A stretch of 64,000 nt of DNA from Tubiluchus corallicola (taxonomy: Eukaryota; Animalia; Priapulida). Of this stretch, positions 27,201-30,486 are shown in pieces. Each line of letters begins with the position of its first letter. Within the stretch, counting starts at the first letter, position 1. The notes beneath the pieces are model-generated. The model saw only the letters and a program-made list of their open reading frames with translations, was not told the DNA's origin and ran no database searches. The translations under genes were made by a program, and so were the position numbers. The stretch covers positions 370,265-434,264 of the forward strand of contig JAQGDQ010000107.1 of the NCBI GenBank assembly GCA_030141605.1, given 5' to 3'.

Positions 27201-30200
27201 TAATCTTAATTGTTTTAGCATCTTTATAAATTTCAACTTGAAACTAATCGAACGTGTGACTCGGAAATTACTTGGCTGATGGCAAATACCCATATTTGGA
27301 AGCAATACCCTGATGCATGTTGTTGTTGATGATGATGATGATGATTAGCCAAATCATTGCGCCCTATAACACGACGGTGTAAGATTTCGTCTAGATATCA
27401 ACCTCTTATTAACATTGTCAGCATCCAATGAACTTAACCCTTTTTGCTGCACAAAAGATTTCACAAATTAACAAAAGACGTATCGTATAAATTCGAAACT
27501 ATTTTCATTTCGGGCAAGAGGGGGGGGGGGGGGTAAAATTAAAAGCTTAAAAACCTGCTTATTTTATTACTCATTACTTATTTGTGACATTAGACGCACA
27601 AACTTGTTTATAATGATTTTTTGTGGTTTTCACGACTCACACAGGGTCTTGCTAACTTTCAGCTCCCAGTTGTGCTTTGCAGTAAGCTACGTTAACAATT
27701 GACTCTTATATTGAGTGTGATAAACAAGTTTAAAAAGCTGGGAGGACAGTTAAAAATAGTGGAATAGCAAAATAGGGGTACAATTGTGAGTTATTGTGAG
27801 CTATATTTTTAGGCAAGATATTTTAAATAGCAAAATAGGGGTACAATTGTGAGTTATTGTGAGTTATATTTTTAGGCAAGATATGTTTATTGACGTACTT
27901 TAGATTTTAAGTAATTTTTTATTTGTTTTATATTTTTTATGTGTGTGTTGTAAATACCACTGCACCAATGATTCACCAAAAACACACTATTGTTTATATT
28001 TACAATATAAGTAATTGTAATAATTACAATAAAAGTGGTTCAGAGCTTATTATTGGTCAAGCAAATGCGATCGTTTTTTTAACCAGGACTGGCCAGTTAT
28101 TGCAAGCTCATAAATCACATTTATCAGGAAGGTATACGTACAACTAAATTTATGCTTTTTGCTATCCTAGGTTCTGACACACATATGGTATCAGGAAGGT
28201 GACATAGAGGTCGCTAGTAGAGTTACAGCAGATGATGAGGACACAGAGCAAAAGACAGTGAGAACTTTGTGGATTGAACTAGCCAGGCATGTACAGATTC
28301 TTCTGAAATACCTTTCTCGATGGAAAGGACAGTTGTATAAGGTAGATAATCTTATGTACCATTCATTGACAGACGTAGAAAATATTAGTCGGATTAGTGA
28401 TAAACAGACTTCTGTGTTTAGTAGATTTGTAAAATATAGAGCATTATTTGCCATTCTGTATATGAAGAGCCCAGTTAAATAAAACAAGACACAAGACACA
28501 AGACACAAGACACAAGACACAAGACACAAGACACAAGACACAAGACACAAGACAAGACAAGACACAAGACAAGACAAGACACAAGACACAAGACACAAGA
28601 CACAAGACACAAGACACAAAACACAAGGCAAGGCAAGGCAAGGCAAGGCAAGGCAAGGCAAGGCAAGGCAAGGCAAGGCAAGGCAAGGCAAGGCAAGGCA
28701 AGGCAAGGCAAGGCAAGGCAAGGCAAGGCAAGGCAAGGCAAGGCAAGGCAAGGCAAGGCAAGGCAAGGCAAGGCAAGGCAAGGCAAGGCAAGGCAAGGCA
28801 AGGCAAGGCAAGGCAAGGCAAGGCAAGACAAGACAAGACAAGACAAGACAAGATAATATTTATTTTCATCGGTATGATATAACAGTACATATTTGTAAAA
28901 CATGAGCTTAAAGCTCTTAAACCGATATCAAACATAATGTATATGAGTGATAACATTGTAATAATATGTACTTCTTAAACTCTTTTGGATGCATTATGCA
29001 GTTTAAATCGTTTGTTCCTATTTGTGTTTTAGATATTAATAACTCCTATGGGACCATACTTCTACAACGATCAGCCATTGGATGAAGAGAATTGTTCTTT
29101 TCCTGCATTAGAATTGTTTAATTGCCTGCAGACTGACCAGAATTACAAATTTGGTGAACAAGAACTTGAATTACAAGTTAAGCGACTTTTTCCTTTCAAA
29201 GGTAGGACCATATTACTTTTATTTTCGTTGATAAACAGACGTATTCTCTATGGGAACAGAGCGCCAGCAGCGGCGCTAGTGCTGGTCATGATATTAGTAG
29301 TCATGATTTGTTTAATCCTTTCAGTCCCAAATAATTTTTTAATAAGAATTTTTTTTTGGCTTGTTACTTTTGTTCAGTATGGCCATCTTGTTTACACATA
29401 ATAATTTTTTGTACCTGTGCCCGCGTGCTAAATATAGCCTGTATCCCACGGGATACATTGGGATTCAATGGAAGCATAAAATGTGCTTCATTCTGTAACT
29501 GCTGATAATTTTTTAAAGTATTGAAGACATTTAGTATGCATGCTATGCTGACCTGTACAAAGTCGTCTCTAAAGTACTGTACCTTGTGCAGTTTTTGTGC
29601 TATGTAGATTTTCTAGTTTGCCATTTTATCACCATTTTTAGTCTATTGTTATTGGCTTAAATCAAAATATCTGTTAGTTTTAAAATTTTATTAATTTTAA
29701 AGGCAGAAAATATTCTCGTATCCCATGCGATACAACGGGTATGAAATGGTTAATGATAACGTTGTGATTTGAGAGTGGCATACGTAAATTATTTGCAGAA
29801 TTAGCAAATGTTTAAAAAACTTTGCACTTCTTACGTGTTTTGATCTTTTATGTGTAACTAGTCATTTTTTGTGTTTTGATCGTTTAGGTGAAACTACTCA
29901 GGACATCAACGGTTGGCTTAAATTTGTGATATCTCATGAAGACACTGTCCGTGCAACACCAACTATTAATGTTGTTCCTCAACCCAGCATGGAAGAAGAC
30001 GAAGGCATACCGCCATCACCTCCACATAAAGTTCTAGGCAGTCCGCATAAACCACGCAAAAACACACGCTCAAAGGTTAAGGGTGCAGTGAAATGGGAAC
30101 TTGATGAAAACGACTCAGAAAAATCTGATCCTCATGACAACAAAGAACAGAGTGAAAATGTAGTCAATGAAAATATGTTGGGGACAAGGAAAGCTGGTAG

Positions 30201-30486: not shown

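Follow-up and report, generated by a model that had tools for sequence, protein, structure and literature searches.

A kinase-less Roco GTPase with a conserved C-terminal CaaX box in Tubiluchus corallicola and its orthologues in protostomes and deuterostomes

The stretch of Tubiluchus corallicola DNA analysed here (the window; 64,000 nucleotides) carries the 3' part of a gene for a Roco GTPase, a protein identified as such through its orthologues, which contain both defining domains, Roc and COR. The protein lacks a kinase and ends in a CaaX box that is conserved in those orthologues. We estimate a probability of roughly 0.7 for the overall reading, namely a kinase-less Roco with a conserved CaaX box that is likely prenylated and holds itself on membranes. 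As judged from the terminal sequence, prenylation of the window protein itself appears highly probable. Relatives occur in molluscs, a nemertean, an annelid, hemichordates and echinoderms, and the best reading of these sequences is an ancient, largely unannotated Roco subfamily spanning protostomes and deuterostomes. Statements on the literature refer to the accessible excerpts of the papers cited.

Results

Ten exons join into one Roco reading frame

The window genome is intron-rich and of animal type, and the Roco gene occupies ten exons of its forward strand between 63 and 30486, with GT/AG at every boundary. The joined exons form a single stop-free frame of 698 amino acids that opens at the G4 motif of Roc, passes through COR and finishes with the CaaX terminus, and the remaining two frames contain 40 and 63 stops. 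This bears out the first-pass annotation, in which the exon at 29888-30486 was proposed to continue the Roc-COR frame to a CaaX end. The 5' part of the gene, including Roc motifs G1 to G3 and any LRRs, lies upstream of the window, and the window frame contains just G4 and G5.

The first exon in the window (63-217), placed by splice frame, alignment and tblastn to orthologues, holds the end of Roc with the G4 motif GTKAD (90-104) and the start of a helical insertion. The end of this insertion and the G5-region strand follow at 2851-2980. When seven orthologues were used as tblastn queries, nine of the ten exons were matched, in order; exon 2851-2980 was not detected, and it was accepted because its AG/GT splice signals, phase and alignment fit and the frame is kept. 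The last Roc helix and the start of COR-A are encoded at 5662-5895 (splice frame, homologue searches and tblastn). Splice frame, homology and tblastn likewise place the exons at 8137-8270 (COR-A), 11923-12052 (COR-A with the family motif FExxRFWP), 13373-13567 (the end of COR-A and a linker) and 20295-20474 (the start of COR-B, with a family motif). COR-B continues at 28171-28341 (splice frame, contig and tblastn) and in the penultimate exon at 29033-29201 (splice frame, contigs and alignment), which closes with a phase-1 donor at 29201. The terminal coding exon at 29888-30486 (splice frame, alignment and tblastn) adds 199 amino acids comprising the last COR helix, a linker, a three-helix element, the CaaX box and the stop.

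The 28341/29033 junction is supported, in a related sequence, by one 177-base contig of run X2 that bridges it: over the penultimate exon the contig shows 12 differences, and a further 36 letters match the end of the preceding exon (27 of 31 alike, by eye). That run X2 represents RNA is a guess. Even at 80% likeness no X2 contig was found on the last exon, a result that counts neither for nor against it.

At the final junction, exon 29888-30486 begins after a pyrimidine-rich AG acceptor and joins the preceding exon, which closes at 29201, in phase 1. All 12 phase-1 AG sites within 29210-30200 that leave a frame of at least 60 amino acids reach the same CMLL end, and the best pyrimidine tract among the 12 belongs to 29888. 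Homology supports the 29201/29888 junction: the alignment across it is ungapped against 10 orthologues and has a one-residue gap against 8 gastropod rows, and a conserved Trp stands immediately beyond it. Contigs of run X1 show zero differences over box and stop. This agreement is not independent, as the run looks like DNA data and is possibly the very source of the window sequence.

The last intron contains a high-copy repeat (29290-29780), at which run X1 reaches a depth of 8,000-20,000 compared with less than 100 for the exon. Reading through the penultimate donor on the same strand (29202-29401) would add about 65 residues, a long hydrophobic stretch among them, before the frame stops; this product overlaps the repeat and is probably due to chance. 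Elsewhere in the window, a dispersed forward-strand element, possibly a SINE, occurs in several copies (23190-23640, 25960-26480, 40930-41500 and 44740-45020), and its 3' end presumably resembles 5S rRNA-derived sequence. Tandem minisatellite arrays lie in the introns of the Roco gene and of its neighbour Kv4 (4100-5330, 12100-12860, 20600-21740, 48380-49110, 50430-51580 and 56260-58420). The large first coding exon of this neighbour, a Shal/Kv4 (KCND) potassium channel gene, lies some 7 kb beyond the 3' end of the Roco gene, likewise on the forward strand (37639-38751).

Orthologues occur in protostomes and deuterostomes

With one exon as query, phmmer yielded 12 matches, including Roc proteins of Haliotis and Owenia; one of the 12 (P0007) was discarded as an unrelated repeat protein. 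A word-indexed search, also with one exon, gave no match. Further homologue searches and cluster look-ups brought the set to 21 named species, namely eight gastropods, one nemertean (Lineus), one annelid (Owenia), two hemichordates and nine echinoderms (five sea urchins and four sea stars). Each of the homologue searches scored about 8000 candidates. Identity to the window protein, compared for 20 models, is 29-41% over 394-828 aligned columns. Examples, uncharacterised or named by best hit, are XP_046356765.2 (Haliotis), XP_030855872.1 (Strongylocentrotus), XP_064633627.1 (Lineus), XP_070558054.1 (Ptychodera) and XP_022098874.1 (Acanthaster).

In a quick unrooted tree, gastropods, hemichordates, urchins and sea stars each formed a group, the pattern that orthologues predating the divergence of protostomes and deuterostomes should show; being quick and unrooted, with a long window branch, the tree does not place the window organism. 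With one model taken per species, 19 of 21 reach the tail. The other two, from Owenia and Lytechinus pictus, leave the alignment at a window intron position, which suggests that they are faulty; at both loci a CaaX exon would be expected further downstream. Left out of the count were second models or isoforms, of which P0020, P0034 and P0045 end in CaaX and P0022, P0025 and P0032 are truncated and lack it, and unnamed fragments. Single-exon fragments (P0006, P0008, P0012 and cluster members) are 34-38% identical to exon 5662-5895, and may represent either further phyla within the family or a sister group among the Rocos.

Roc and COR are present and a kinase is absent

We scanned ten orthologues with Pfam. 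Roc scored above the cut-off in nine, the tenth being 5'-partial, and in both of the long matches as well. COR-B was matched in seven of the ten, always below the cut-off, and neither COR-A nor COR-B gave a score above it in these proteins; single window exons matched no Roco family. No kinase family and no F-box was detected in the ten, and LRR_6 repeats appeared in three long urchin models. A kinase after COR was also rejected for the window itself: the frame stops at the end of the tail, the forward strand from 30487 to 37600 showed no kinase motif, and the gene that comes next is Kv4.

An AlphaFold2 model of the 1163-residue Strongylocentrotus protein (pLDDT 77) comprises an FBXL-type LRR domain, Roc-COR and a three-helix tail, with no kinase. 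The first Foldseek matches of this model were LRRK1, LRRK2 and the C. tepidum Roco. Its residues 331-974 superpose on LRRK2 1330-1866 with Z 24.3 (488 residues, rmsd 5.8), and the model superposes on C. tepidum Roc-COR with Z 21.4 (443/485, rmsd 4.8). In this predicted structure, COR follows directly after Roc. Residues 6-324 find their best structural match in FBXL2 (Z 32.9), with FBXL17 close behind (Z 30.6).

All 20 models that cover the P-loop and the DxxG motif have both of them intact, and GTP binding is therefore predicted. The N-terminal part differs between lineages. LRR-Roc-COR without a kinase is found in the full-length urchin and Owenia models. Gastropod models begin about 20-30 residues before the P-loop, with N-termini that are alike and without LRRs, which suggests that this lineage truly lost them. 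In sea stars and Ptychodera the models start with the final LRR cap, and their N-termini are possibly incomplete. With the P-loop near the start and CaaX at the end, the gastropod models P0002, P0013-P0015, P0017, P0019 and P0031 have a Ras-like layout.

The tail carries a conserved helical element

The first-pass annotation described an acidic, Ala-rich tail of about 200 residues. Length and composition agree, with 199 residues in which Ala, Val and Glu are commonest; its extent and nature were revised, as the first 15 or so residues form the folded end of COR and the rest includes a conserved element. This Ala-rich element (30202-30459) is, on conservation and structure prediction (pLDDT 74), a three-helix unit rather than mere low complexity, with helices predicted at about 30202-30300, 30325-30375 and 30385-30459. 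The linker that separates it from COR is disordered and contains a basic-hydrophobic motif (30073-30102; K-rich, then [IV]KWxL in the family) present in the window and in 18 of 19 complete orthologue models. A strict reading of this motif as RVxF, the pattern used for comparison, was rejected because by eye the pattern does not fit.

Searches with the tail found no convincing relative among PDB sequences (best E 0.15), no convincing Pfam family and, by fold, generic helices only (best Z 8.2). Structure prediction with two copies gave a score of 0.01 and a mark of 0.32. The first helix presumably resembles the RII-binding amphipathic helix of A-kinase anchoring proteins; no AKAP family was found in the Pfam matches of 11 tails and no AKAP peptide in 35 PDB matches with E up to 10, searches in which such short motifs are easily missed.

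The CaaX box and the triplet before it are conserved

The terminal segment (30448-30486, forward strand), defined by sequence and conservation, contains the prenyl-acceptor Cys (codon 30472-30474), a Ser three residues before it (30463), a Leu directly before it (30469), Leu as the X residue, and the stop at 30484-30486. Taken alone, a single box of this kind is weak evidence because chance ends are common: among 1954 stop-to-stop frames of at least 20 amino acids in the window, 100 have Cys at -4 and 42 resemble CaaX. Conservation in the orthologues settles that the box is real. A CaaX terminus is present in all 19 complete models, from snail, ribbon worm, acorn worm, sea urchin and starfish, which together with the Pfam result upholds the first-pass description of a kinase-less Roco with a terminal CaaX box. 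The Cys at -4, whose loss in orthologues that annotation had named as evidence against its reading, is kept in 19 of 19. With the window protein included, Cys at -4 and Ile, Leu or Val at a2 are found in 20 of 20, and Cys makes up 0.4% of the last 100 residues outside the box.

The X residue is Leu in 11 of these 20 proteins, Met in 4, Ile in 2, and Ala, Val and Ser in one each. Grouped as Leu/Ile (13), Met/Ala/Ser (6) and Val (1), these counts indicate that a prenyl anchor is conserved and not one particular lipid. Geranylgeranylation, as first proposed, thus fits the window protein with its X of Leu and does not extend to the family as a whole. The prenyltransferase rules for the X residue in PMC9141697 predict geranylgeranylation for the CMLL end of the window protein and farnesylation for the forms of the sea stars and Lineus.

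Counted back from the Cys, Ser at -3, Lys or Arg at -2 and Leu or Met at -1 are each found in 19 of 20 proteins (at -1, Met in 10, Leu in 9 including the window, and Asn in one), and positions -5 to -20 are variable. Net charge over the 16 residues before the box ranges from +1 to +7, with several gastropods at +1 to +3, so a polybasic tract is not the constant feature. The window has four basic residues there (net +3) and three Arg-Ser pairs. Of the basic patch plus CaaX originally noted, the box was confirmed; the patch is modest, and what the family conserves is the Ser at -3 and Leu/Met at -1 rather than a tract of the Rho/Rac type. The sole member without Ser-[Lys/Arg]-[Leu/Met] is Lineus (P0024), which ends in Cys-x-Cys-aaX after a basic run. 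Its second Cys, at -2, is the only Cys upstream of a box in the family, and the end is a candidate palmitoyl-plus-farnesyl anchor that recalls the palmitoylated cysteines of FBXL2 (PMC9988375).

The triplet resembles a signature published for high-affinity binding to the prenyl carrier PDE6delta and common among ciliary cargo. INPP5E and GRK1 peptides owe nanomolar PDE6delta affinity to a Ser at -3 combined with Ile or Met at -1, a combination that directs ciliary sorting; Ile and Met were the residues tested there, and Leu is plausible but was not among them (PMC5512577). Further, 12 of 25 prenylated PDE6D partners have Ser at -3 (PMC9857354). Such a triplet does not guarantee a ciliary address, because NIM1K and UBL3 mutants with Ser changed to Lys still reached cilia and FAM219A, with Ser at -3, was not seen inside them (PMC9857354). 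We regard the triplet as a good sequence-level lead for binding to the carrier and a weaker one for the cilium. INPP5E, GRK1, NIM1K and UBL3 all have Ser at -3, and the first two also a large hydrophobic residue at -1 (PMC5512577, PMC9857354); these cargo proteins are unrelated to Roco.

Discussion

A proposed self-anchoring model and its alternatives

We propose the following mechanism. A type-I prenyltransferase would add a lipid to the terminal Cys by established CaaX biochemistry, predicted to be geranylgeranyl in the window protein, and the prenylated Roco would then stay on a membrane by itself, with no Rab needed to recruit it, while the short run of basic residues and the basic motif of the linker would strengthen the attachment. 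Through Ser-[Lys/Arg]-[Leu/Met], it could bind PDE6delta tightly, be extracted from membranes and be delivered to a target membrane, perhaps that of the cilium. Once anchored, Roc-COR would go through a GTP cycle and form dimers as other Rocos do, and the LRRs, where present, would bind partners. Judged by the triplet, carriage by PDE6delta is somewhat better than an even bet, and the cilium as destination is a tentative suggestion. A fuller version would describe an ancient bilaterian subfamily of PDE6delta/ARL3 cargo working in the cilia of marine invertebrates, with Roc-COR placed between FBXL2-like LRRs and CaaX and with gastropods cut down to a giant Ras-like form; we consider this version doubtful.

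Phospho-switches beside prenyl-cysteines exist in K-Ras4B, RhoA and Rnd3, and the conserved Ser could be read in the same way, in a prenylated protein of the plasma membrane or endomembranes that is released by phosphorylation at -3 rather than by PDE6delta. In favour of this reading, Lys/Arg stands next to the Ser on both sides, at -2 in 19 of 20 proteins and at -4 in 14 of 20, and the window protein has its three Arg-Ser pairs. We nevertheless consider such a switch unlikely, since a charge switch requires a strong polybasic tract, which several orthologues do not have, and since it leaves unexplained the Leu/Met at -1, for which the PDE6delta structure provides a reason (PMC5512577).

Alternatively, the prenyl group may serve mainly as a handle for protein binding, or be folded into the three-helix element, leaving the protein largely soluble. 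The box does stand directly behind a conserved hydrophobic helical element, and basic charge is low in some members, but the stretch joining the last helix to the box differs in length and sequence among members and is predicted with low confidence in the full-length structure, as expected of a flexible tether, which makes this arrangement quite improbable. Least probable is that CMLL is an unmodified chance motif or comes from a wrong last exon, as the frequency of look-alike ends, a final junction without RNA support and the other, hydrophobic end given by read-through of the penultimate exon are outweighed by a box common to all complete orthologues and an alignment that crosses the junction almost gapless to the conserved Trp. 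A prenylated, self-anchored Roco thus remains our preferred reading.

Relation to known Roco proteins

Human MFHAS1/MASL1 is the closest counterpart in architecture, being likewise a Roc-COR protein without a kinase and with N-terminal LRRs, as in our urchin and Owenia models, and two orthologues were automatically named MFHAS1 homolog or MFHAS1-like by NCBI. The likeness is at the level of architecture only. MFHAS1 LRRs are of a different class, MFHAS1 is not known to carry a CaaX box, and no MFHAS1 sequence was among the matches of our homologue searches. MFHAS1/MASL1 is described as a kinase-less LRR-Roc-COR protein (PMC6337361, PMC6320773, PMC3995007); MASL1 ends in Roc-COR and is broadly cytoplasmic in HEK293T cells (PMC3995007), and a review citing Marin 2008 gives MFHAS1 as restricted to deuterostomes (PMC4104024). 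The present family, in contrast, adds a tail of about 200 residues and a CaaX box after Roc-COR and has members in molluscs, a nemertean and an annelid. The initial label 'MFHAS1-like' is apt for the domain order and does not fit the C-terminus or the taxonomic range given for MFHAS1.

LRRK2, the Parkinson's protein, and LRRK1 (PDB 8fo9, 8e05) share the Roc-COR fold and a membrane-linked activity, and are the best PDB sequence matches of Roc. Unlike them, the present Roco has neither kinase nor WD40 and would carry a lipid itself, whereas LRRK2 is brought to membranes by prenylated Rabs (PMC6337361, PMC6891090). The LRRs of the orthologues have their best PDB match in FBXL2/FBXL20 (PDB 6o60; E 1.8e-34), and FBXL2 also ends in a box, CVIL, is geranylgeranylated and binds PDE6delta (PMC9988375). 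It differs in that the orthologues showed no F-box and have Roc-COR between LRRs and box. Descent from FBXL2 is not established, because FBXL17 matches nearly as well and few FBXL structures exist.

Within the titles, abstracts and passages covered, the literature on Roco together with CaaX or geranylgeranyl contained no prenylated Roco; an earlier mention in a survey is possible, since subscription journals and supplements fell mostly outside this scope. The surveyed papers on PDE6D and cilia did not contain the term Roco, those on animal Roco evolution contained nothing on this Roco family, and the available text of Roco reviews and of a brown-algal survey either spoke of prenylation in connection with Rabs or Ras alone or left it unmentioned. 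Set against these sources, the new element is an animal Roco lineage with its own CaaX box, within the known Roco family, common to protostomes and deuterostomes, and unlisted in the accessible parts of the Roco reviews.

The gastropod models that start at Roc are at odds with the statement that Roc-COR always follows other domains. Membrane binding of LRRK2 is tied to its dimerisation and activation. A self-anchored kinase-less Roco would offer a natural minimal system for the effect of membranes on the Roc-COR cycle, because a single Cys-to-Ser change removes the anchor, and members are present in tractable animals such as sea urchin, sea star and abalone. Should the PDE6delta signature prove functional, Roco GTPases would thereby be connected with trafficking to cilia.
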